A DNA stretch of 10,020 bases, taken from positions 1-10,020 of the IMG/VR virus record IMGVR_UViG_3300010244_000056; one strand, given 5' to 3'. Under the pieces are notes generated by a model. That model searched no databases. It saw nothing but the letters and a program-made list of their open reading frames with translations, and was not told where the DNA came from. Position 1 is the stretch's first letter. The number at the start of each line of letters is the position of its first letter. The DNA comes from a virus. A program made the translations under genes and the position numbers. Positions 1-10,020 of the stretch are shown piece by piece.

Positions 1-180
1 GGGATATCCGCACCCCCCCTCTCCGTTATCTCATTTCCCATAATATTCTCACAATTATTTTTTTCGATTCTAATTAGATTCAAAATTTTCTGTCATTAAA
101 TTTTTATTGAACCTATTTAATATTCTTAATAGAACCAACTATGAACAAATGGTAACCTAATAAATTAATTAAAAAACAAA
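1..180. repeat. Left inverted terminal repeat (180 bp)
   Basis: Reverse complement of 1-180 equals 9841-10020 at every position, compared in 10-nt blocks. The match breaks at 181 vs 9840. The end starts GGG, then palindrome GGATATCC (2-9) and a C7 run (13-19). Confidence 0.97.
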
Positions 181-192
181 TACCACAATCTA

Positions 193-221
193 TTGACAAT
201 GGAAATCCAATGGTGTAAGAT
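193..221 (+). promoter_or_regulatory. Candidate sigma70/sigmaA-type early promoter P1
   Basis: Consensus -35 TTGACA (193-198), a 17-nt spacer, then -10 TAAGAT (216-221, 4/6). It lies just inside the left ITR boundary and upstream of the first ORF. Confidence 0.5.
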
Positions 222-252
222 TGAGATATAAATTGAAAGCGAGGTGATGAAA

Positions 253-393
253 ATGATTGGAAAATGGTTAGCAATTAACATAAATGATGGTAGTTATGTT
301 AGGGCTGATGTTCAAATGACTTTGAAAAAGTTCCTTATTGAATCAGGTTTGACAAATGAGTTAGTAAAAAATTATAAGTTATTAAGTATTTAA
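253..393 (+). CDS. Small hypothetical early protein (46 aa; 48 aa if ATG 247 is used)
   Basis: Hand-translated ORF below the track size cutoff: MIGKWLAININDGSYVRADVQMTLKKFLIESGLTNELVKNYKLLSI, stop TAA 391-393. SD GAGGTG (241-246) is 6 nt before ATG 253. It is first downstream of P1. Confidence 0.4.
   Translation: MIGKWLAININDGSYVRADVQMTLKKFLIESGLTNELVKNYKLLSI
349..378 (+). promoter_or_regulatory. Candidate second sigma70/sigmaA-type promoter P2
   Basis: Consensus -35 TTGACA (349-354), an 18-nt spacer, then TATAAG (373-378, 5/6). It is positioned to drive the 422-772 gene and lies in the 3' end of the small ORF. Confidence 0.4.
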
Positions 394-421
394 ATTTTAA
401 CATATTAAAGGTGGTTTAAAC

Positions 422-772
422 ATGGGAATATTAAACAAGTATAATAAAAAACCGTTATTTGAATATGACAACAACAAAAAACGTGAGTTTGCGAAGTTGA
501 GGGATCTTGTTTCAATTGATGGTGTGGGTCAAAAAAATTATGTTGTTCATGCTTTGTTTATTAACAAAAAATCTAGGTTTGGTGAAGAGCCTATCATTGT
601 AACAGAAAATAATATGGTAAATGCACCTAGACATTTACTTGATACAGTTAAAGATATGAGGGAAGATGAAGAAGTTATAAACTTAATTAATAATAGAATG
701 GTCGCTTTTAAAATTTATAGCTATTCGGGTAAAAATGGTGATGGTTATTCAGTTGAATGGATTGAGTTATAA
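422..772 (+). CDS. Hypothetical early protein; tentative replication accessory DNA-binding protein (phi29 gp5 SSB / gp6 analogue)
   Basis: 116-aa ORF with SD AAAGGTGG 6-7 nt before the ATG. Its size, first large position in the early block and C-terminal pattern (MVAFKIYSYSGKNGDGYSVEWIEL) resemble my recollection of the phi29 gp5 C-terminus (FKVKVVQGTSSKGNVFFSLQLSL). The functional call is weak. Confidence 0.55.
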   Translation: MGILNKYNKKPLFEYDNNKKREFAKLRDLVSIDGVGQKNYVVHALFINKKSRFGEEPIIVTENNMVNAPRHLLDTVKDMREDEEVINLINNRMVAFKIYSYSGKNGDGYSVEWIEL

Positions 773-775
773 ATT

Positions 776-801
776 AGTTGGCGGTATAACCGCCAACTTT
801 T
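776..801 (+). terminator. Hairpin / weak intrinsic terminator after the 116-aa gene
   Basis: Perfect 9-bp stem AGTTGGCGG (776-784) / CCGCCAACT (790-798) with a 5-nt loop. Only a short TTT tract follows (799-801). Confidence 0.45.
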
Positions 802-817
802 AAGGGGGTGTGATAAA

Positions 818-1066
818 ATGCACGATACCATATTAAAAGAAGTTGGCATTTATTGTCGATTCTATCGAATGTACGAATTAAATATGACGCTTAGAGATGT
901 ACAAGGTAATGAAAAAATTAAATCATTATCAAGTTTTGAACATGGACATAGTAGCAATATTAAACACTTATTCAAATATTTAATTAAATGTGATAATGAT
1001 ACAGAACGTATTAATTTTTTAATTGGTCTTATAAGACATGTGAGGTCAAACATAAATTGGGAGTGA
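818..1066 (+). CDS. Putative XRE-family helix-turn-helix DNA-binding regulator
   Basis: 82-aa ORF with SD GGGGGTG (804-810). The segment VGIYCRFYRMYELNMTLRDVQGNEKIKSLSSFEHGHSSNIKHLFKYL fits the XRE/Cro-type HTH pattern (R..R...l.T..dv......lS.fE.G.......l.k). Motif-level recognition only. Confidence 0.5.
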   Translation: MHDTILKEVGIYCRFYRMYELNMTLRDVQGNEKIKSLSSFEHGHSSNIKHLFKYLIKCDNDTERINFLIGLIRHVRSNINWE

Positions 1067-1070
1067 TTTA

Positions 1071-1712
1071 ATGGTGAAGGGTATCAAACTAACAGACGAT
1101 CAACCAACCGTAACAAAAACAGTAAAAGAACAAAAAGAGAAAGCTATTCGTGAATATAGAAAAGAGGCTTCAAGGTTAGCAAGTAAAGCAAATAAACGTT
1201 TACAAAGATTAGAACGTAATAAGTTGCAAGATAGTCCAGCATACCAATCAGCTATTGATGGTGGTGAGGTACGCTTTGGTGTTCGTGGGAAAACTCATAA
1301 TGAACTACAATCTGAGGTATCTCGTATGACAAGGTTTTTAGAATCTGAGACATCAACTGTTAGAGGTGCTAACAGAATATTAAAAGAAATGGCAACAAAT
1401 ACAGGTATTAAATATAAAAATTTGAAGGACTTAAAAAAGAACGCAAAAAAATTCTTTGAGTTATCTAGTAAAGTTGAACAATATTTAAGAAACGTTGATG
1501 ATATGGCTTCAGCTATTGGATATGAGAAAATATGGGAGGCTGTTAATGAGTATGTTGAGGAAAATAAAGGTGACCTTTCTTCAAGTACCAACAATATTGA
1601 TAGTGCTGTCAAAAAAATATCTGATGCCATTAAAGAATATGACGATAAAGTTAAATTTGAACCATTAGATAGTGATTTTCCTGATGGTTGGTATAAACTA
1701 CCTAAGAAATGA
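1071..1712 (+). CDS. Candidate terminal protein (replication primer protein)
   Basis: 213-aa ORF immediately upstream of, and apparently coupled to, the protein-primed-type DNA polymerase, as for phi29 gp3/gp2. It has a highly basic N-terminal third (KEQKEKAIREYRKEASRLASKANKRLQRLERNK) and an acidic, Ser/Tyr-containing C-terminal part. SD GGGAGTGA precedes the ATG. The call rests on synteny and composition, not on a recognised motif. Confidence 0.5.
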   Translation: MVKGIKLTDDQPTVTKTVKEQKEKAIREYRKEASRLASKANKRLQRLERNKLQDSPAYQSAIDGGEVRFGVRGKTHNELQSEVSRMTRFLESETSTVRGANRILKEMATNTGIKYKNLKDLKKNAKKFFELSSKVEQYLRNVDDMASAIGYEKIWEAVNEYVEENKGDLSSSTNNIDSAVKKISDAIKEYDDKVKFEPLDSDFPDGWYKLPKK

Positions 1713-1721
1713 TGTGATTAG

Positions 1722-3827
1722 TTGCTTCATTTTAGAGAAAACACCATTAATGAATTATCTTTTCCAACCATTAAAACAAACAAAAAAATAACTTATTTGA
1801 ACACTGAATCAGCTTTTGACATTGAAACAACAAGTACTAAAATTCAGGGTGAAAAAACAGCCTTTATGTATATATGGATGTTTGGATTAGGATTTGGAAA
1901 TAATATTTATTATGGTAGAACATGGGATGATTTTTTAAATTTAATTAAACAATTACAAATCCATTTTAATTTGGGATATTATAAACGTTTGGTTGTCTAT
2001 GTTCATAATTTGGGATATGAGTTTCAATTTATGAGAAAATATTTCAAATGGGAAGAAGTATTTGCAGTTGGGGAAAGAAAACCAATTAAAGCTTTATGCG
2101 AAGAAGGGATTGAGTTCAGGGATAGCTACATTTTAAGTGGTTATTCACTAGGAAAAACAGCCGAAAATTTACAATATAATGAGGTGGAAAAACTGACAGG
2201 GGATTTGGATTATTCCCTAATAAGAACACCTGAAACAGTTATGCAACCACAAGAAATGGCTTATTGCCATAATGACATTGAAATTATACTGGCATATATT
2301 AATGAACAGATACACCAATATAAAGACATAACCAAAATACCACTAACAAACACAGGCAGGGTTAGAAAATATGTTCGTGATAACTGTTATTACACTAATT
2401 CTAACCATAGGAAAAGCAGTAAAGGGAAATACTACAAATACAGAAAATTAATGCAAGATCTGAAGTTGTCCGTCGAAGAATATAAAATGTTAAAACGTGC
2501 TTTTATGGGTGGATTTACACATGCTAATGCTAACCATACAGGTAAGGTTTTAAAAGACGTGTCAAGTATTGATTTTACATCATCATACCCTAGTGTTATG
2601 TTAGCTGAACAATATCCCATGAGTAAAGGGAAACAAATAGATGTTAATAGCATAGATGAACTTGAATATTATTGCCATAAATACTGCTTATTATTCAATA
2701 TACGTTTAACAAATGTTGAAAGCAGTATTTCACAAGAAAACTATATAAGTGAAAGTAAGTGTTTTGAGTTATCTAACCCTATTTTAAATAATGGGCGTGT
2801 GTATAGTGCTAGTTCATTGGCTATGACGATAACAAATGTTGATTTTGACATCATCAAACAATGTTATGATTGGGAAGATATTGAAGTATCCAACGTCATA
2901 CGTTATCATAAGGGTTACCTTCCAAAGTCAATTATATCAAGTATATTAGAACTTTATAAGGATAAGACCGTTTTAAAAGGTGTGGAAGGGTATGAAATTG
3001 AATATTTATTGTCAAAAGGTATGCTTAATAGCGTCTATGGTATGAGTGTAACAGATATAGTGAAAGACAACCATATTTATGATGATAATGAGGGGTGGGA
3101 AGTTGAACCTGTTACCATATCAGATGAAATTGAAAAATATAATGAAAGTAAAAACAGGTTTCTTTATTATCCGTGGGGTGTTTGGGTGACAGCCTATGCA
3201 AGAAAAAATCTCTGGACAGGTATTATAGCATTAGGGAATGATTATGTTTATAGTGATACTGATAGTATTAAAATGATTAATTATAGTGATAATGTTGATT
3301 ATATTGAATGGTATAATAAACAAACTATGAATAAATTAAACCGTATGTGTGATGTTATGAATATAGATAAATCATTACTTGAACCTAAAACAAAAGAGGG
3401 AACTAAAAAGCCTATTGGTGTTTGGGATTTCGAGGGTACTTATAAACGTTTTAAAACATTAGGTGCAAAAAGATATTTGGTACAAGAAAATGATGAACTT
3501 CATTTAACAATAGCAGGATTATCTAAACAAAATGGGATAGAATACATGAAAGAAAAAAGTGGGTTTAATTATGAGAAGGTGTTCGATATGTTTAATGATG
3601 AGTTATATATTCCTGCTGAACGCACAGGGAAAATGACACATACTTATATTGATAATGAACAACAATTCAGGATACAAGATTATCAGGGTAACGATAGTAA
3701 TATCACAACAAAAAGTAGTATCAACTTAGAACCTGCCGATTTTACATTATCAATATCAAGACAATATGGGCGTTTTTTACAATTCTTTTTAAAAGGTTAC
3801 CTATATAAAGGGGTGAACGAAATATGA
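1722..3827 (+). CDS. Family B DNA polymerase, protein-primed (phi29/Cp-1 type)
   Basis: All motifs occur in canonical order. ExoI AFDIETTS (D-I-E at 1818-1826), ExoII YVHNLGYEFQF (from 2004), ExoIII YCHND (2262-2276). Motif A DFTSSYP (2571-2591), motif B KGMLNSVYG (3015-3041), motif C YSDTDS (3249-3266), KxY GAKRY (3468-3476). Long inter-motif segments are compatible with TPR1/TPR2-type insertions. No in-frame ATG exists upstream of ExoI, so the start is TTG 1722. Confidence 0.95.
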   Translation: MLHFRENTINELSFPTIKTNKKITYLNTESAFDIETTSTKIQGEKTAFMYIWMFGLGFGNNIYYGRTWDDFLNLIKQLQIHFNLGYYKRLVVYVHNLGYEFQFMRKYFKWEEVFAVGERKPIKALCEEGIEFRDSYILSGYSLGKTAENLQYNEVEKLTGDLDYSLIRTPETVMQPQEMAYCHNDIEIILAYINEQIHQYKDITKIPLTNTGRVRKYVRDNCYYTNSNHRKSSKGKYYKYRKLMQDLKLSVEEYKMLKRAFMGGFTHANANHTGKVLKDVSSIDFTSSYPSVMLAEQYPMSKGKQIDVNSIDELEYYCHKYCLLFNIRLTNVESSISQENYISESKCFELSNPILNNGRVYSASSLAMTITNVDFDIIKQCYDWEDIEVSNVIRYHKGYLPKSIISSILELYKDKTVLKGVEGYEIEYLLSKGMLNSVYGMSVTDIVKDNHIYDDNEGWEVEPVTISDEIEKYNESKNRFLYYPWGVWVTAYARKNLWTGIIALGNDYVYSDTDSIKMINYSDNVDYIEWYNKQTMNKLNRMCDVMNIDKSLLEPKTKEGTKKPIGVWDFEGTYKRFKTLGAKRYLVQENDELHLTIAGLSKQNGIEYMKEKSGFNYEKVFDMFNDELYIPAERTGKMTHTYIDNEQQFRIQDYQGNDSNITTKSSINLEPADFTLSISRQYGRFLQFFLKGYLYKGVNEI

Positions 3828-4921
3828 GCGATGAAAAACAATTTTATAGTTTAAATCGAATAAAAAAGAAAAATGCGGTTTACAATGTTATATTTGGTGA
3901 ACGGTCAAACGGTAAAACATATGCTGTTTTGAAAGAAGGTTTACGGGTTTTCTGGAAAACAGGTGGTCAAATTGGAATCATAAGAAGATGGAAAGAAGAT
4001 ATTACAGGCAAACGAGCACAAGGAATTTTTAATGCTTTAAATGAAAACGATGAAATTTTGAAAATGACAGATGGGGTTTTTCAGGGAATACATTATTACA
4101 GTGGACGTTATTATTTATGTAATTACACTGAAGATGGTAAAGTTACTTATGAATATGAAAATTGTATAGGCTATGTGTTTGCTTTATCTGATAATGAACG
4201 CAATAAATCTATATCATTTCCTAACATTCAGACAATCTTATTTGATGAGTTCCTAACCAATCAAATATATTTACAAGATGAGTTTATTTTGTTTATGAAT
4301 ACAGTTTCAACAATTGTTAGACAACGAACCGATGTTAAAATATATATGCTAGGAAATACCGTCAATAAATATTGTCCGTATTTTAAAGAAATGGGGTTGC
4401 GACATATACACAAAATGCAAAAGGGGGATATTGATGTTTATAAATATGGAAATAGTAAATTAACGGTGGCAGTTGAGTATTGTAATTCAAGCACAAAAAA
4501 TAAGGAAAACAACTTTTATTTTGCCTTTGACAATCCAAAATTGGATATGATTACGGACGGTGCATGGGAATTAGATATGTATCCCCATATACCAACAAAA
4601 TACCAACCAAAAGACGTGTTAATGATATATTTCATTTTGTTTAATGAGTCCATCTACCAGTGTGAAGTTGTTCAACGAGAAAACATGACATTTACTTTTA
4701 TTCACCCTAAAACAACCCCGTTGAAAGATACTGAAAATGATCTTATATACACACTGGAATATATTCCTAAAATGAATTATAATAGGAATATATATAAACC
4801 TATAAACCAATTACAAGAAAGGTTATTATGGTATTTTAAAACAGATCGTGTGTTTTATTCAGATAATGAAACAGGAGAAGCTATTAATAATTATTTAAAA
4901 GTGTGTAAAGGTGGGGGATAA
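3824..4921 (+). CDS. DNA encapsidation (packaging) ATPase, phi29 gp16-like
   Basis: Walker A GERSNGKT (3896-3919) and Walker B ILFDE (4235-4249). The segments NVIFGERSNGKTYA, FPNIQTILFDEF and IYMLGNTVNKYCPYF parallel my recollection of phi29 gp16 (NFVIGARGIGKSYA, YPNVSTIVFDEF, ICLSNAVSVVNPYF). The start overlaps the polymerase stop (ATGA). SD GGGGTGA. Confidence 0.88.
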   Translation: MSDEKQFYSLNRIKKKNAVYNVIFGERSNGKTYAVLKEGLRVFWKTGGQIGIIRRWKEDITGKRAQGIFNALNENDEILKMTDGVFQGIHYYSGRYYLCNYTEDGKVTYEYENCIGYVFALSDNERNKSISFPNIQTILFDEFLTNQIYLQDEFILFMNTVSTIVRQRTDVKIYMLGNTVNKYCPYFKEMGLRHIHKMQKGDIDVYKYGNSKLTVAVEYCNSSTKNKENNFYFAFDNPKLDMITDGAWELDMYPHIPTKYQPKDVLMIYFILFNESIYQCEVVQRENMTFTFIHPKTTPLKDTENDLIYTLEYIPKMNYNRNIYKPINQLQERLLWYFKTDRVFYSDNETGEAINNYLKVCKGGG

Positions 4922-4922
4922 T

Positions 4923-5105
4923 ATGACAAATGAATTAGTTGATTTAATCGGTAACGTGGGGTTCCCCATTGTGATTTCATTGGTTTTATTTTATCAGCTT
5001 ATGAAAACAAAAGATATGATGATAGAATTTCAAAAAATCATAACTATGAATACAATGACGATTGAAAAATTAATACAAGAACTAGATGAGAAAAAAATGG
5101 AGTGA
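4923..5105 (+). CDS. Small membrane protein, YvrJ-family-like
   Basis: 60 aa from ATG 4923, with SD GGTGGGGG 5 nt upstream; the track's GTG 4911 is less likely. LIGNVGFPIVISLVLFYQL matches the conserved GFPI-containing transmembrane core I associate with the Firmicutes/phage YvrJ family. A charged helical tail follows. It is the only clear TM segment in the genome. Confidence 0.6.
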   Translation: MTNELVDLIGNVGFPIVISLVLFYQLMKTKDMMIEFQKIITMNTMTIEKLIQELDEKKME

Positions 5106-5110
5106 ATAAA

Positions 5111-6130
5111 GTGTATAATTATAAAGATAAAATAAAAAACATTCAACAACGAAATGATTATATGTTGGCTAGAACCCTTTCTATGTTTGAATATGAAAAC
5201 ATGCCTGATAGTATACCACCCCTAGAAGTTGAAAAGCAATTGCAAAAACAGGGATTCACCTTTATAACAGAAATTGAAGGTAAATTATATGCCCTGACAG
5301 GTGGTCTGGGAGGCTATCCTGATGTATACGGGAATCCTACACAAATAATTATTTCAAACCCTTATATAGAATATAATGCAACATTAGATATTAATAATGA
5401 TGGTGTTTTAATAATGAATGATGATATGATGAAAGGGTTAAATCCATTATTTGAACAATATAACACCCTATTAACCGAAAATGAGATATCTATGTATGTT
5501 AATTTATATAATACACGCATTCAAACACTAATCAGCGCAGGTGATGACGCAACTAGAGAAAGTGCTGAGAAATATCTTCAAAAAGTGCAGGAAGGTGAAC
5601 TAGGGGTTATAGGTGAAAATCAATTATTTGATGGCATAAGAGCACAGAACTCATCTGATAAATCAGACCTTACAAATCAATTAGTCGAATTTCATCAATA
5701 CATTAAGGCGTCATTATATAATGAAATTGGTCTTAATTCCAATTACAATATGAAAAGAGAGCGTTTAATTAGTGATGAAGTAAAAATGAATGACAGCTTA
5801 TATCCATTAATTCATAATATGCTTTCAAACAGGAAAAGAGGTATTGAAAAAGTGAATGCTATGTTTAATCACAATATAGATGTTATGTTTGGTTCTATTT
5901 GGAACATTAGAGATGTTGAACCTGAACCAGAACAAGTTGAACCTGAACCAGAACAAGTTGAACCTGAACCAGAACAAGTTGAACCTGAACCAGAACAAGT
6001 TGAACCTGAACCAGAACAAGTTGAACCTGAACCAGAACAAGTTGAACCTGAACCAACAGATGAAGAAATTTCAAACGCTTATGCTATTAATGAACAAAAA
6101 GATGATGAAGAAGGGCGTGATAATTCTTGA
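5111..6130 (+). CDS. Connector / portal (upper collar) protein, phi29 gp10-like, with C-terminal acidic tandem repeat
   Basis: FEYENMPDSIPPLEVEKQLQKQGF and NMKRERLISDEVKMND parallel my recollection of phi29 gp10 ([39 protein letters not shown]). The preferred start is GTG 5111 (SD GGAG 5099-5102, 8-nt spacing). The alternative GTG 5102 overlaps the upstream stop (GTGA). Confidence 0.85.
   Translation: MYNYKDKIKNIQQRNDYMLARTLSMFEYENMPDSIPPLEVEKQLQKQGFTFITEIEGKLYALTGGLGGYPDVYGNPTQIIISNPYIEYNATLDINNDGVLIMNDDMMKGLNPLFEQYNTLLTENEISMYVNLYNTRIQTLISAGDDATRESAEKYLQKVQEGELGVIGENQLFDGIRAQNSSDKSDLTNQLVEFHQYIKASLYNEIGLNSNYNMKRERLISDEVKMNDSLYPLIHNMLSNRKRGIEKVNAMFNHNIDVMFGSIWNIRDVEPEPEQVEPEPEQVEPEPEQVEPEPEQVEPEPEQVEPEPEQVEPEPTDEEISNAYAINEQKDDEEGRDNS
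5915..6055 (+). repeat. Perfect 21-bp tandem repeat, 6 full copies plus 15 nt (GTTGAACCTGAACCAGAACAA)
   Basis: Unit boundaries counted at 5915, 5936, 5957, 5978, 5999, 6020 and 6041, with no mismatch until 6056. It is in frame in the portal gene and encodes (VEPEPEQ)6-VEPEP. Confidence 0.97.
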
Positions 6131-6672
6131 TTTTAAGTGATTTTTTAGAGGGAAAAGAAAACTTATTCAATGTAATAAACACCAAAACAACCCTGCCATT
6201 TTTAAAAGAAAATGATACTGAAACGATTCTACTATCATATAAGTTAGAACATGGCAATTTAAAAGTACCTGAAAAGATAGAAAATTTGACTATTCCAGAA
6301 CTATCAGATATAATTATATTAAATTATGAGGATAAATGGGATAAACAGTATAAAATATTAAGTGAAGAAATTGTTCTGGGAGTTGATCGAAAAACAAAAA
6401 CTGATATTACAGGGACTGATGATACAAACAAAAAAACAAAAACAGATAAAACCAACAAAATAAGTGCCTATAATAGCAATGAATTAATAACAGATGATGG
6501 GTCTGATAGTAATTCAACCGATGATACAAATACAAACACAACAAAAAATAGTGAAAAAACAGAAAAAAGTTTTGAGGGTATGAAAGAACAACTGAAATTG
6601 TTTGATTATAGTTTCTTAAAAAACCATGTTTTTAGAGATGTTAATCATATTTTAACTTTACAAATTTATTAA
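6127..6672 (+). CDS. Hypothetical structural protein; candidate lower collar / tail-tube connector (scaffold role not excluded)
   Basis: 181-aa ORF with no in-frame ATG near the 5' end. TTG 6127 overlaps the portal stop (TTGA). It directly follows the connector gene, as gp11 follows gp10 in phi29. It has helical-looking N- and C-terminal parts around a 60-aa polar Thr/Asp/Asn/Lys-rich core (nt 6388-6567). No motif recognised. Confidence 0.4.
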   Translation: MILSDFLEGKENLFNVINTKTTLPFLKENDTETILLSYKLEHGNLKVPEKIENLTIPELSDIIILNYEDKWDKQYKILSEEIVLGVDRKTKTDITGTDDTNKKTKTDKTNKISAYNSNELITDDGSDSNSTDDTNTNTTKNSEKTEKSFEGMKEQLKLFDYSFLKNHVFRDVNHILTLQIY

Positions 6673-6685
6673 GGAGTTGTTAAGA

Positions 6686-7855
6686 ATGAAAGTTAAACAA
6701 TTACGACAATTAGTCAATCAGGCAACACAAGAAGTTCTAGGTGAAGAAGGTGTTATCAACGAAGATCTTTCAAACGTTGTTGATGTGGGGAAGAAAATTG
6801 AAAATGCAGACAGCGTTGATAATTATGTGAAAAAGTTGGTTAATCATATTGGTAAAGTGACATTCCAAAATAGATCATATGCGGGTGGTGCGCCATCTGT
6901 ATTAATTGATAGTTGGGAATATGGCTCAATCCTTGAAAAAGTGAGCACAGAACTACCTGAAGCCAATGAAAATGAAACATATAAATTGACTGATGGGGCT
7001 GAATATTCCCCTGATATTTTCTATCAACCAAAAATTAGTACACAATTTTTCAACAGTAAAGTGACATTTGAAATTCCATTATCTTTTACAGAAAACCAAA
7101 TTAAAGAAAGTTTTTCAAGTGGCAATCAATTGAACGGTTTTGTTTCAATGCTAACAACAAGTGTTGAAAACTCATTCACTGTTAAACTTGATAATCTAAT
7201 CATGAGAACTATCAATAATATGATTGGTGAAACACTTAATGATGATGTTTCAAGTGATTTTACAAAAACAGGTGTTAAAGCGGTCAATCTTATTAGATTA
7301 TATAATGATGAATATGATACAAGTATTACAAAAGAAACCGCATTATCTAACCCCGACTTTATTCGTTATGCAACTTATATTATTGGTTTGTATAGTGATC
7401 GCATGAAAAAGATTTCAACCTTGTTCAATATTGGTGGTAAAGAAAAATTTACACCTGAAGAGCATCTTAACACAGTTTTATTGTCCGACTTTGAAAAAGC
7501 TAGTAATGTTTTCTTAAAAGCTGATCTGGAAAACAGCAATCAAATCACATTGCCTACTCATGAAACAGTTCCATATTGGCAAGGAAGCGGTAAAGATTAT
7601 AGTTTTAAATCTGTATCTAGCATTGATGTTAAAACTTCAAGTAAAAACAAAGTTGCAACCGATGGTATTTTAGGTGTTATGTTTGATCGTGAAGCTATTG
7701 GGGTTTCCAATCTTGATCGTAGAGTGACAACTAACTTCAATCCAAAAGCAGAATTTTATACGAATTTTTACAAATTTGAAGCAGGTTATTTCAATGATAA
7801 AAATGAAAATTTTGTCGTTTTCTTCTTAGGTGATGAAGCAGGTACTGAGTCTTAA
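6686..7855 (+). CDS. Putative major capsid protein
   Basis: 389 aa from ATG 6686, preceded by the best SD in the genome (AAGGAG 6671-6676, 9-nt spacing); TTG 6677 in the track is too close to the SD. It is followed by an intrinsic terminator, lies between the portal block and the tail gene, and has a size typical of small-podovirus capsid proteins. The fold cannot be judged by eye. Confidence 0.7.
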   Translation: MKVKQLRQLVNQATQEVLGEEGVINEDLSNVVDVGKKIENADSVDNYVKKLVNHIGKVTFQNRSYAGGAPSVLIDSWEYGSILEKVSTELPEANENETYKLTDGAEYSPDIFYQPKISTQFFNSKVTFEIPLSFTENQIKESFSSGNQLNGFVSMLTTSVENSFTVKLDNLIMRTINNMIGETLNDDVSSDFTKTGVKAVNLIRLYNDEYDTSITKETALSNPDFIRYATYIIGLYSDRMKKISTLFNIGGKEKFTPEEHLNTVLLSDFEKASNVFLKADLENSNQITLPTHETVPYWQGSGKDYSFKSVSSIDVKTSSKNKVATDGILGVMFDREAIGVSNLDRRVTTNFNPKAEFYTNFYKFEAGYFNDKNENFVVFFLGDEAGTES

Positions 7856-7860
7856 TGAAT

Positions 7861-7891
7861 GCGGTGCGGGTAACCACATCGCTTATTTTTT
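7861..7891 (+). terminator. Intrinsic terminator downstream of capsid gene
   Basis: Stem GCGGTGCGG (7861-7869) / CCACATCGC (7874-7882): 9 positions with one G-U and one mismatch, loop GTAA. TTATTTTTT follows (7883-7891). Confidence 0.6.
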
Positions 7892-7899
7892 GAGGTGTT

Positions 7900-8355
7900 A
7901 TGATGGAAATTGTTTTGTATGAAACAATGGATAATGATGATGTTTTAAATAAATCAAAAACAGAACAATATAGATTTAACATTCAATTGAAAAGTGAAAC
8001 CGACATACAAGAACCTAATATTAAATTGAGTGATGAGGGGTTAATGAATTTTAAACGATGTAATTATTGTTATATTGAAGATTTGCAACGTTATTATTTC
8101 ATTCGACGTGTTGAAAACATTAATAGTCAAATATGGTCTTTAGACCTAAAATGTGATGTTATTGAAACATATAAAAATGACATATTAAATAGTTATGCTA
8201 ATGTTTATAGAGGTATTAAAAAAGGTGATTATATGGAAATTAGTTCAGATTTTGAAACCAAAAAAACTTATGAAAAATTTGACAGTAATAAATCATTCAA
8301 TAACGTTGAAAATGTCATCATATTATCAACTTTAGGTGGTGGGGACAATAAGTAA
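7900..8355 (+). CDS. Tail knob protein, N-terminal part (phi29 gp9 N-domain-like)
   Basis: SD GAGGTG precedes the ATG. NYCYIEDLQRYYFIRRVENINSQIWSLDLKCDVIETYKNDI (8062-8184) parallels my recollection of the phi29 gp9 N-domain ([46 protein letters not shown]). VIILSTLGG resembles gp9 FLVIISKSIMHG. The ORF ends 20 nt inside the next ORF. Confidence 0.7.
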   Translation: MMEIVLYETMDNDDVLNKSKTEQYRFNIQLKSETDIQEPNIKLSDEGLMNFKRCNYCYIEDLQRYYFIRRVENINSQIWSLDLKCDVIETYKNDILNSYANVYRGIKKGDYMEISSDFETKKTYEKFDSNKSFNNVENVIILSTLGGGDNK

Positions 8356-9817
8356 TTTTCATGTAAAAGATGACGGTTTAAAAGTGACAACGGTTATATA
8401 TGAGGACGGTATTAAAAGAGAAACAAAAGTATATGCTATTAAAGGTGATAAAGATTATTACGTTGATACGATAGGTGATTTTTCCAACGTTAAATGGGAA
8501 ATGACCGTTAGACCAACTTACAGGGGTGAGTTTCTTGTTCCTGGAACTATAAGGCTTAAACATGACGACGGGTCATTATCTGGCAATGACGAGTACTTCA
8601 TTGTTGATGATGATTTTCAGGGTACAAATACCATTGTTCGTGAAAACTTGGAATCAGAAGATGACATTACAATTATGGGTGATGTATCATCAACAAAACC
8701 TGTTCCACCAGTTGACAATGTTAAAGTTTCATTTAATGATGTGAATGAACGTGGGGCAGAATTAAAAATAGTTGATGGATCTGAGACAATTAAAACCATC
8801 ACTGATTATGGGGACTATGATGTACCATCTAAAGATAACCAAACCTATGATCTACACATTGAACTTGTTGATAATACAGACTCATTTAAGGAAACACCTT
8901 ATTATATTTTAGATGGTATAAAAACAGATTTTACTATGAAAAACAGTGCTGAAACAAACCCTGTCACCTTATCATTTAATGGAATTGACAATGAGAAAAT
9001 TGAAATATATGGGCGTGTATCATCATCTGGTGATAATGGGGGTGGTGATGGTGGTGAAACTTCAGGTTTTAATCACATATATAAAGTCACAAAAGATGAT
9101 TTGAATGAGCTATCTAAAGAGCGTTTTGAGGTTGTAACAGCAGATTTTTCTGCCGACCTTATCGACTTAGGACAGAACATACTTAATGTCATGAAGATCC
9201 CATTTTCAGTTGATGATTTTCTGGGTGGTAATAATAAGATTGTTTTAGGTAATAAAACAACAAAAGTCACAGCACCTGAAATAACAAGTGATTTATTAGA
9301 AGTTGATCTAGGGTCTATTAAAGTCACTGAAAAATTTGGAAACTTATTTGATTATATGAATACAACCACAACTATTTACCTTCCATATATTGAAGAGATG
9401 GAATTGGACAAGTCATATGTTATTGGTGAAACTATATATATTAAATATGTGATTGATCTTTATTCAGGTGATGTTACAGTGAATATAACCAATACAAAAA
9501 ATGAACAAGTGAAGTCTAAAACAACAACAATTGGTAGACAAATACCATTTATACAAGAACAAGAACACACACAAATGTTTAGCGAATATTCAGGTAACAC
9601 ATTTTTCAATGGTATCTATCACGCATACATCATAGTTAGTAGAAATGAGCCTGTTAATATTGATAATGATATGAATCCTTACATATCTGACTATGGACAG
9701 TTAAAAAATTTCACAAGCCGTATTGTGGTTGATAATGTGGACTTGAAAACAAACGCGACATTACAAGAAAAACAGGAAATAATTAGCATATTAGAAGAAG
9801 GTTTGAATATAAATTGA
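8336..9817 (+). CDS. Tail knob protein, C-terminal part (phi29 gp9-like) with an N-proximal beta-rich insertion; start uncertain, possibly expressed as a fusion with 7900-8355
   Basis: TIYLPYIEEMELD (from 9371), GNTFFNGIYHAYIIVS (from 9593) and the C-terminal NATLQEKQEIISILEEGLNIN parallel my recollection of gp9 (MMYPYCVTEITD; GNTAFDYGNGYRGVYVIK; DINNNDLQEIRTIFDNGITLW). There is no ATG and no SD upstream of GTG 8336/8339. The frame opens right after TAG 8333-8335. Confidence 0.7.
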   Translation: MVGTISNFHVKDDGLKVTTVIYEDGIKRETKVYAIKGDKDYYVDTIGDFSNVKWEMTVRPTYRGEFLVPGTIRLKHDDGSLSGNDEYFIVDDDFQGTNTIVRENLESEDDITIMGDVSSTKPVPPVDNVKVSFNDVNERGAELKIVDGSETIKTITDYGDYDVPSKDNQTYDLHIELVDNTDSFKETPYYILDGIKTDFTMKNSAETNPVTLSFNGIDNEKIEIYGRVSSSGDNGGGDGGETSGFNHIYKVTKDDLNELSKERFEVVTADFSADLIDLGQNILNVMKIPFSVDDFLGGNNKIVLGNKTTKVTAPEITSDLLEVDLGSIKVTEKFGNLFDYMNTTTTIYLPYIEEMELDKSYVIGETIYIKYVIDLYSGDVTVNITNTKNEQVKSKTTTIGRQIPFIQEQEHTQMFSEYSGNTFFNGIYHAYIIVSRNEPVNIDNDMNPYISDYGQLKNFTSRIVVDNVDLKTNATLQEKQEIISILEEGLNIN

Positions 9818-9850
9818 AGTAGTGCTAAGGTACTACTTCTTTTGTTTTTT
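9817..9850 (+). terminator. Intrinsic terminator after the last gene
   Basis: Stem AAGTAGTGC (9817-9825) / GTACTACTT (9830-9838): 9 bp including one G-U, loop TAAG. CTTTTGTTTTTT follows (9839-9850). Confidence 0.7.
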
Positions 9851-10020
9851 AATTAATTTATTAGGTTACCATTTGTTCATAGTTGGTTCTATTAAGAATA
9901 TTAAATAGGTTCAATAAAAATTTAATGACAGAAAATTTTGAATCTAATTAGAATCGAAAAAAATAATTGTGAGAATATTATGGGAAATGAGATAACGGAG
10001 AGGGGGGGTGCGGATATCCC
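9841..10020. repeat. Right inverted terminal repeat (180 bp)
   Basis: Exact reverse complement of 1-180. Its inner edge (9841-9850, TTTGTTTTTT) doubles as the U-tract of the last terminator. Confidence 0.97.

Follow-up and report, generated by a model that had tools for sequence, protein, structure and literature searches.

The astrithr-like phages are phi29-related mini-podoviruses (cluster 23 of PMC11476376) that include the Salmonella phages astrithr, assan and Astrid (Astrithrvirus astrithr), DU_PP_III of Pectobacterium and Phanie of Acinetobacter. Their tail knob is built from two genes, the lower collar is shortened and fibre or spike genes are not detectable (PMC11476376). Phanie is a satellite that needs a helper phage, after Pourcel et al. 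2024 (J Virol 98:e00667-24) as cited in PMC11476376, where it is also suggested that other members of the clade may share this strategy. A CHAP-type lysin gene lies directly 3' of the knob gene in astrithr, Astrid and Phanie as well as in DU_PP_III and Vibrio K58 g2, and these lysins have 48-66% mutual identity. Here we describe a viral DNA of 10,020 bp (IMG/VR record IMGVR_UViG_3300010244_000056, positions 1 to 10,020; this whole stretch is referred to as the window), which by its gene content is a member of this clade that lacks the lysin gene and retains o64, a small YvrJ-family membrane protein that is probably the holin partner of the lost lysin. The clade and its losses of phi29 parts were already known (PMC11476376); what is new is an astrithr-like mini-podovirus that shed its lysin.

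The window is linear and bounded by perfect 180-nt inverted terminal repeats (ITRs), the left repeat at 1..180 being 100% complementary to the right repeat at 9841..10020. An independent JGI contig from sample 3300020217 (L038, 9,936 bp) has termini and ITRs identical to those of the window and encodes the same tail protein, differing by two substitutions and by four fewer 21-nt repeats in the portal gene. Perfect ITRs and a second assembly with identical ends establish that the window is a complete genome, so the sequence-only reading made earlier, which depended on the contig being complete, rests on solid ground here. The GC content is about 30%, and every credible open reading frame (ORF) is on the plus strand, to which all gene coordinates below refer. 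The 12 genes total 9,483 nt of the 9,660 nt between the repeats, a very high coding density that bears out the near-zero intergenic space reported before. TGA serves as the stop codon in 6 of the 12 genes, in agreement with the standard code proposed in the same reading.

No DNA-level match to the whole window was found by megablast among 50,697 phage records, which places it outside the genus Astrithrvirus. At the protein level, the phi29-type HK97-fold major capsid protein (MCP; 6677..7855, Pfam Phi29_MCP 3e-53) has 59-62% amino acid (aa) identity over 98% of its length to those of astrithr, Phanie, DU_PP_III and Vibrio K58 g2, versus 25-31% to those of Guelinviridae-like phages, and it nests within the astrithr-like clade in a neighbour-joining tree. 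The gene order is also that of the clade: a small first gene, the terminal protein, a family B DNA polymerase (PolB), the packaging ATPase, an ORF of about 65 aa, the portal, a protein of about 180 aa, the MCP, a protein of about 145 aa and a large tail protein. Thus the window has the linear genome of about 10-12 kb with ITRs, the PolB, the syntenic terminal-protein homolog, the MCP clustering and the two-gene knob by which the clade is recognised, and it lacks the downstream lysin. The sequence-only reading had measured this genome against phi29-type phages; MCP and synteny instead assign it to the astrithr-like clade and not to the Salasmaviridae kind. The absence of gp12, gp13 and a recognisable scaffold, together with the split knob, is therefore a set of family traits already described (PMC11476376) rather than a peculiarity of the window.

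Comparison with individual relatives shows two classes of departure from phi29. The first consists of clade traits, namely no gp12, no gp13, no recognisable gp7 and a loop-less knob; the second is the lineage-specific loss of the lysin with its probable holin partner kept. Phi29 itself (Salasmaviridae) resembles the window in replicating by protein priming and in its ATPase (gp16 type), portal (gp10 type), MCP (phi29 type) and knob elements (gp9 type), but its genome is 19.3 kb and encodes gp7, the gp8.5 head fibre, gp11, gp12, gp13, the gp14 holin and the gp15 endolysin; gp7, gp8.5, gp12, gp13 and gp15 were not recognisable in the window. Like the window, Phanie is linear with ITRs (171 nt, versus 180 nt in the window) and has the same core gene order, with identities of 61% for MCP, 60% for PolB and 60% for the ATPase, and both knobs are split and without the hydrophobic loop. 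Phanie differs in being 11,885 bp long, in having a CHAP+CW_7 lysin gene behind the knob gene and, at its right end, two early genes on the minus strand, and in a knob with about 600 aa of extra N-terminal domains. The window lacks all three of these features and for its part has two additional ORFs, on the plus strand, at its left end. Astrithrvirus astrithr and DU_PP_III likewise share core genes and synteny (MCP 60-61%), but have a CHAP lysin and three to four right-end early genes, including a conserved protein of about 100 aa that has been called SSB-like (PMC11476376). The closest known genomes, at 74.5% MCP identity and 30-31% GC, are L009 (IMGVR_UViG_3300020227_000065) and L041 (ENA UOOI01004376, fermentation metagenome), which share the left-end layout of the window from the conserved early protein o116 through the small protein o82 and the terminal protein onward. 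L041 has the same lysin-less gene set minus the first ORF (o49) in at least 9,373 bp, with a shorter knob protein (343 aa), while L009 differs from the window in having an M15 lysin with two CW_7 repeats after the knob and, ahead of the MCP gene, an additional ORF of 89 aa.

We searched all ORFs of the window, those of 46-110 aa in alternative frames among them, against Pfam, PHROGs and NCBIfam, and no peptidoglycan hydrolase was matched; the families covered were amidase_2/3, CHAP, NlpC/P60, M15, M23 and GH19/23/24/25/108. The same libraries gave no match to the phi29 gp12 appendage, gp13 tail lysin or gp7 scaffold. A six-frame tblastn comparison of the window with the CHAP endolysins of four relatives also showed no trace of a lysin (best E > 0.05). 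The knob stop codon (9817) overlaps an intrinsic-terminator-like hairpin at 9816..9839 on the plus strand, in which a 10-bp stem is followed by TTTTGTTTTT, a T-run, and which abuts the right ITR beginning at 9841, leaving no space for a further gene and no gene remnant. RNAfold gives -15 kcal/mol for a 66-nt stretch containing this hairpin, which by its sequence and position closes the late operon. Judged by these searches, the absence of an endolysin is real, and the earlier statement that no endolysin, tail lysin, appendage or gp7-like scaffold can be recognised holds under profile and six-frame searches alike. That reading also allowed for the lost functions being hidden in the 181-aa protein or in early ORFs, an option that the relatives contradict: o181 and o116 co-occur there with bona fide lysins (o116 with CHAP lysins in L013, L019 and L033), and so neither is a replacement lysin. 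The early ORF o49 is too small for an enzyme (49 aa).

We then compared the region between the knob gene and the right end across relatives (30 viral and 74 metagenomic; individual genomes are given by L-numbers). Most carry a CHAP gene in this position. In L009 it is occupied by Peptidase_M15_4 with two CW_7 repeats (Pfam; L009 10201-10878), in the L032/L034/L092/L098 group by GH25 with CW_7 (Pfam), and in L039 by a truncated ORF with an NlpC/P60-like start, a possible fourth lysin type. By this comparison of gene content, the position after the knob is an interchangeable lysin slot. Among the lineages where the region could be judged, the slot is empty in nine: window/L038, L041, L082, L059, L062/63, L065, L021, L081 and L026/88. 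For the empty-slot genomes we mapped all genes and scanned each ORF still without a label against Pfam and PHROGs; no lysin was found elsewhere in them, so that by sequence comparison a lysin after the knob is not universal in the clade. The empty-slot genomes fall at no fewer than five separate places on the MCP neighbour-joining tree, and MCP identity among them is 82% for L081-L021, 71% for L082-L021 and 82% for L065-L063. Since lysin-less clades have diversified to this extent (70-82% MCP identity), the lysin-less state must be heritable and viable, and these genome comparisons show lysin loss to be recurrent in the clade and stable. We did not find this pattern of at least nine lysin-less lineages described in the literature searched. 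In one empty-slot genome, L026 (11,684 bp, 45% GC), a 714-nt perfect ITR (1-714 and 10971-11684) overlaps the 3' end of the knob gene and duplicates part of it, inverted, at the left end; this overlap is either real or an assembly artefact, and the related contig L088 ends just past the knob gene.

The second element of the lysis question is o64 (4911..5105), a 64-aa YvrJ-family protein with a single transmembrane (TM) segment at residues 9-27 (mean hydropathy 2.15) and a charged helical C-terminal tail containing 6 Lys/Arg and 7 Asp/Glu. This putative holin matches phrog_4898 'holin' at 8e-8 and Pfam YvrJ at 4e-4, the latter with 20.4 bits against a cut-off of 29.5 bits, while family members in L033 and L082 pass the cut-off. 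The family has a VGFPI motif within the TM helix, and 55 of its 57 unique members have a TM segment. The sequence-only reading called this protein YvrJ-like, and the family assignment stands, at a sub-cut-off score; the profile search adds the match to a PHROG annotated as holin. A holin-family match was among the findings that reading itself had named as telling against it, and through o64 that reading is in part contradicted.

We scored the presence of o64 with a family hidden Markov model against the presence of a lysin in 29 lineages, defined as 95% MCP clusters. Lineages with a lysin have o64 in every case (20 present, 0 absent), and lineages without one have it in three and lack it in six (Fisher p = 1.8e-4); o64 is thus found in 20/20 lysin-bearing lineages and is absent solely from lysin-less ones. 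Within the clade formed by L082 and the inner pair L081 and L021, all three genomes lack a lysin and the inner pair alone lacks o64. In L033, a YvrJ-family gene that passes the Pfam cut-off lies directly 3' of the CHAP gene. From these associations between genes, o64 is probably the holin partner of the lost lysin. In L082 (5847-6345), a weak Holin_LLH-like ORF of 84 aa (Pfam 2.4e-4, below cut-off) lies beside the YvrJ-family ORF, with both located 3' rather than 5' of the portal gene.

The tail knob of the window is split between o151 (7900..8355), its N-terminal part, and the 493-residue protein o493. The earlier gene list left the 151-aa ORF unnamed; profile matches to knob proteins now identify it. 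The o151 family profile matched chains of 4EO2, the phage C1 gp12 knob, and of 8EGS (both with the PDB name 'major tail protein') at E ~1e-3 over residues 50-146. By hhalign it aligned to residues 91-131 of phi29 gp9 (E = 8e-4), and o151 also matched phrog_2248 (tail protein) at E 8.5e-4. 8EGS is the Andhra knob, and our assignment of o151 agrees with that made for the clade (PMC11476376). The C-terminal half of o493 (9071..9817) is the conserved C-terminal part of the knob and matches all relatives, in which the conserved stretch corresponds to residues ~212-493. Its C-terminus shows matching segments in the same order as the phi29 gp9 C-terminus (hhalign weak, E = 0.11), and the o493 family profile had no match among PDB sequences. 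The start codon of o493 (GTG at 8336 or 8339) lies 20 nt before the o151 stop in the +1 frame, and the genes likewise adjoin in relatives, the stop of one lying beside the start of the other or a few bases away; the arrangement suggests translational coupling of both knob parts.

A 50-60-residue loop rich in Gly and Ala and free of charge is missing from the knob of the window and of every astrithr-like relative in the alignment. The longest charge-free run in the C-terminal half of o493 is 18 aa, versus 53 in phi29 gp9. The loop is present in phi29 gp9 and also in AD70P2, L007, L033, P0003 and P0004, which are relatives at a greater distance. In phi29 gp9 this loop is the membrane pore-forming element. 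A loop-less knob, as seen in the alignment, fits a tail that would be unable to deliver DNA alone.

In contrast to its conserved C-terminal half, the N-terminal half of o493 (8336..9070, ~245 aa) is a variable orphan. A HMMER search of 1.84 billion representative proteins with residues 1-250 returned o493 alone, and the half had no match in Pfam, PHROGs or NCBIfam, no internal repeat and no similarity to the variable regions of relatives, which range in size classes from ~100 to ~600 aa. It contains no Cys and 3 His. In the clade generally, immunoglobulin-like (Ig-like) domains in varying number precede the conserved C-terminal part of the large knob protein (PMC11476376). Based on sequence features, the N-terminal half of o493 is probably a non-catalytic binding module.

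Taken together, the window may be a Phanie-like satellite whose lysis is provided by a helper phage, a proposition to which we give roughly even odds; its anatomy is observed directly, and we infer the lifestyle from it. Under this model the phage would multiply solely in cells co-infected by the helper, would enter via the helper's contractile tail, and would rely on the helper's lysis system to set its progeny free. If infection always took place in a helper-infected cell, the helper's lysis cassette would open that cell, so the satellite's own lysin, and later its own holin, would become dispensable and could decay. The window would represent an intermediate stage, with the lysin gone and the holin (o64) still kept. 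Knobs that are loop-less clade-wide and lysis genes that were repeatedly dispensable fit a satellite model for the whole clade. Of the options listed in the sequence-only reading, helper-phage dependence is the best supported, though for this genome it is inferred rather than demonstrated. A functional analogy is offered by the Streptomyces satellites Ando and Mulchroom, which have their own capsid genes and need a helper's tail, Ando being without lysis genes (PMC13587820). These satellites, to which the MiniFlayer helper-satellite system is related, parallel the window in outsourcing exit; they are unrelated to it in sequence, and the window encodes its own replication and packaging.

Several points weigh against helper dependence. 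It has been shown for Phanie alone, and Phanie still has a lysin; moreover, Salmonella phage Astrid is called non-satellite in one preprint. The satellite-compatible features of the window (no fibre genes, a loop-less knob, dispensable lysis genes) are circumstantial. The holin role of o64 is drawn from a database label, gene adjacency and co-occurrence, we found no link between YvrJ proteins and holins in the literature searched, and the 29 lineages of the Fisher test are not phylogenetically independent. Since the window retains o64, it may still perform a lysis step itself. Finally, the orphan half of o493 is without a usable model, as the prediction from a 4-sequence alignment reached a predicted local distance difference test (pLDDT) score of 35.

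The retention of o64 raises the question of whether it lyses the cell alone, either as a holin that depolarises the membrane and thereby activates host autolysins or as a single-gene blocker of wall synthesis. Holin-triggered autolysin activity is known in Gram-positive hosts, and the host here is possibly Gram-positive, given that the L009 lysin resembles Bacillus and Listeria phage endolysins; o64 is also kept intact, with the conserved VGFPI motif in its single TM helix and its match to phrog_4898 'holin'. However, a self-sufficient lysis protein would need no lysin, yet one accompanies o64 in all 20 lysin-bearing lineages, and no lineage keeps a lysin without o64. Because four independent lysin-less lineages have also lost o64, it is not what keeps lysin-less genomes viable, and we consider lysis by o64 alone unlikely. 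Replacement of the lysin by a novel wall hydrolase, hidden in the N-terminal half of o493 or in o49, is more doubtful still. Residues 1-250 of o493 have no homolog and no usable model, and the CHAP lysins of the clade resemble a tail-tip lysin (PMC11476376), which makes a tail-associated lytic activity plausible. But three profile libraries were negative for this half, its content of no Cys and three His argues against a hydrolase, and the corresponding regions of relatives have been described as Ig-like domain arrays without catalytic function (PMC11476376). In the other lysin-less genomes the knob proteins are 343-382 aa with a variable region of ~100-135 aa, too small for an added enzyme, and o49 is likewise too small.

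Alternatively, the window could be a defective deletion variant or a misassembly that lost the lysin and right-end genes from one terminus and is not a viable phage. Relatives do carry 1.5-2 kb more at the right end (lysin and minus-strand early genes), and an ITR-bearing genome could in principle repair one end from the other ITR. Nevertheless, the window and L038 have the same ends and gene set while differing by 2 substitutions and in repeat-copy number, the late operon finishes in a terminator against the ITR, the nearest lysin-bearing relative is at 74.5% MCP identity, and lysin-less clades have diversified. The position of o116 at the left end, as in L009 and L041, further indicates an ordered layout and not a truncation, leaving this explanation very improbable. 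We give hardly any credence to a wall-less or unusual-envelope host that would make a lysin needless, as the sequence-only reading had allowed. A small protein-primed Mycoplasma podovirus has a genome of similar size, and the GC content of the window is low (30%), but TGA is a stop in 6/12 genes and all isolated members of the clade infect walled bacteria. The closest complete relative, L009, which belongs to the same subclade and GC range, has an M15 hydrolase with two CW_7 wall-binding repeats; with CHAP or GH25 lysins in other relatives, the hosts of the clade must have peptidoglycan. We retain helper-provided lysis as the favoured explanation for the empty lysin slot. A broader form of it, which we put forward only tentatively, is that all astrithr-like phages are obligate satellites which leave both entry (tail and membrane penetration) and exit (lysis) to helpers, with genomes at successive stages from lysin plus holin, through holin alone (window), to neither; the lineage of the window (9.9-10.0 kb, 12 genes) would then be near the minimal self-replicating, self-packaging capsid set of a tailed virus.

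The host may differ from those of the isolates, all of which infect Gram-negative bacteria. The M15 domain of the L009 lysin has 60-67% identity to L-alanyl-D-glutamate peptidase endolysins of Bacillus, Listeria and Geobacillus phages, and this likeness, together with the CW_7 repeats, indicates that the low-GC subclade of the window may infect a Gram-positive host. A scan of genome collections yielded mainly metagenome bins spread over many phyla (among them Bacteroidales, Treponema, Christensenellaceae and Methanobrevibacter), and we rejected these scattered assignments as host evidence because small phage contigs are easily mis-binned. The assembly of the actinobacterial isolate Herbiconiux daphne CPCC 203386 contains at least five short scaffolds (L116, L120, L121, L138, L140) encoding astrithr-like MCPs with 55-64% identity to that of the window. 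These were also set aside, as their probable source is phage DNA of more than one genome that came in by contamination or co-culture.

Of the remaining structural genes, the portal (upper collar connector; 5102..6130, Pfam Phage_connector 3e-14, phrog_2038 7e-41) has an acidic repetitive C-terminal tail. This tail includes seven tandem 21-nt units encoding EPEPEQV (5915..6061), an array that is polymorphic, with seven copies in the window versus three in L038 (portals of 342 aa and 311 aa). Portals of relatives are 294-454 aa with acidic tails, and L021 and L081 instead have a separate acidic ORF (110-113 aa) after the portal gene. Beside the portal lies o181 (6127..6672), a conserved core protein of 181 aa with homologs in essentially all relatives, whose gene is directly 5' of the MCP gene with 4 nt between. 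A search with its low-complexity segment trimmed found 303 database homologs of ~180 aa. The AlphaFold (AF2) model from a 71-sequence alignment (pLDDT 67) is all-helical, with helices at 3-94 and 137-177, and a segment at 91-144 with pLDDT < 50 contains the conserved motif NKVSAFNS. No sequence-profile link to phi29 gp11 or gp7 was found (hhalign to gp7 negative), o181 had no match among PDB sequences and its model no PDB fold match, and a BFVD entry named 'lower collar protein' was matched weakly (E = 2). Thus o181 may represent a lower collar in shortened form, as assigned in the literature, or else a protein resembling a scaffold. The claim that the genome lacks a helical scaffold therefore survives only as the lack of a gp7 match; with o181 predicted to be all-helical apart from its low-confidence middle, absence of a helical assembly protein cannot be asserted. 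In L009, the extra 89-aa ORF (6764-7033) separates the o181 homolog from the MCP gene, the place where a scaffold is classically encoded, and looks helical by eye.

The replication and packaging genes resemble those of other members of the clade. The protein-primed family B DNA polymerase (1722..3827; Pfam DNA_pol_B_2 5e-11, phrog_1907 5e-88) has 56-73% identity to the polymerases of relatives. The 213-aa protein encoded directly 5' of it (1071..1712) has 43-64% identity to its positional counterpart in every relative and is a putative terminal protein, its role taken from this position; the terminal-protein gene of the clade has been assigned as the counterpart of phi29 p3 (PMC11476376). The polymerase gene is followed by a phi29 gp16-type DNA packaging ATPase (3824..4921; Pfam Podovirus_Gp16 6e-17, phrog_2150 1e-28). 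Phi29 has a packaging RNA (pRNA; PMC11476376), and despite the gp16-type ATPase nothing resembling it appeared in our Rfam scan of the window, if the pRNA family is in the library. No Rfam family was matched in the window at E <= 1, and a tRNA scan found no tRNA.

Three small genes precede the terminal protein. The first, o49 (244..393), is found in this genome only, with no homolog in any relative and no match in Pfam, PHROGs or NCBIfam. The conserved early protein o116 (422..772) has homologs in relatives and no family match; in L009 (65%), L041, L026, L028 and L033 these lie at the left end, whereas L013, L019, L059, L063 and L065 carry them on the minus strand at the right end. The third, o82 (818..1066), is homologous to the first gene of astrithr and Phanie, with tblastn identities of 39-55% to L001, L002, L009 and L010. 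L033 (13,600 bp, ITR 255) is organised differently: o116-like, CHAP, YvrJ-like and portal genes stand in a row at its left end, with the polymerase and ATPase on the opposite strand, the hydrophobic loop is kept in its knob, and it has an o181 homolog of 370 aa. L033 may belong to a more autonomous sister group.

The left ITR opens with a C-rich motif, GGGATATCCGCACCCCCCC (window 1-20). A similar C-run close to the termini is also present in L009, L059 and L082 and may represent a replication-origin feature conserved in the clade; L041 does not have it, so that its sequence probably breaks off within the ITRs at its ends. Just inside the left repeat, 5' of the first ORF, is a weak promoter-like site on the plus strand (193..221; TTGACA-17-TAAGAT, 10/12 matches). 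Promoter-like sites are no more numerous in the window than in shuffled sequence, so this site is a positional hint only.

The smallest tailed-phage genome has been quoted as 11.6 kb (preprint 10.1101/2025.06.18.659913). The window (10,020 bp), L038 (9,936 bp) and L041 (at least 9,373 bp) are all below this figure, and also smaller than all relatives in the phage record collection (10.4-11.9 kb), and hence help to delimit which genes a head-tail virus needs at minimum. Should the clade truly be able to dispense with lysis genes, these genomes would provide genomic evidence, independent of the one experiment on Phanie, for widespread helper dependence among the smallest tailed phages. Such phages would escape isolation on pure host cultures as well as lysin-based host prediction. 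Gene loss in the clade would also follow an ordered path, the lysin first and the holin-like gene second, and that path would double as comparative evidence on the function of an uncharacterised YvrJ-family membrane protein.

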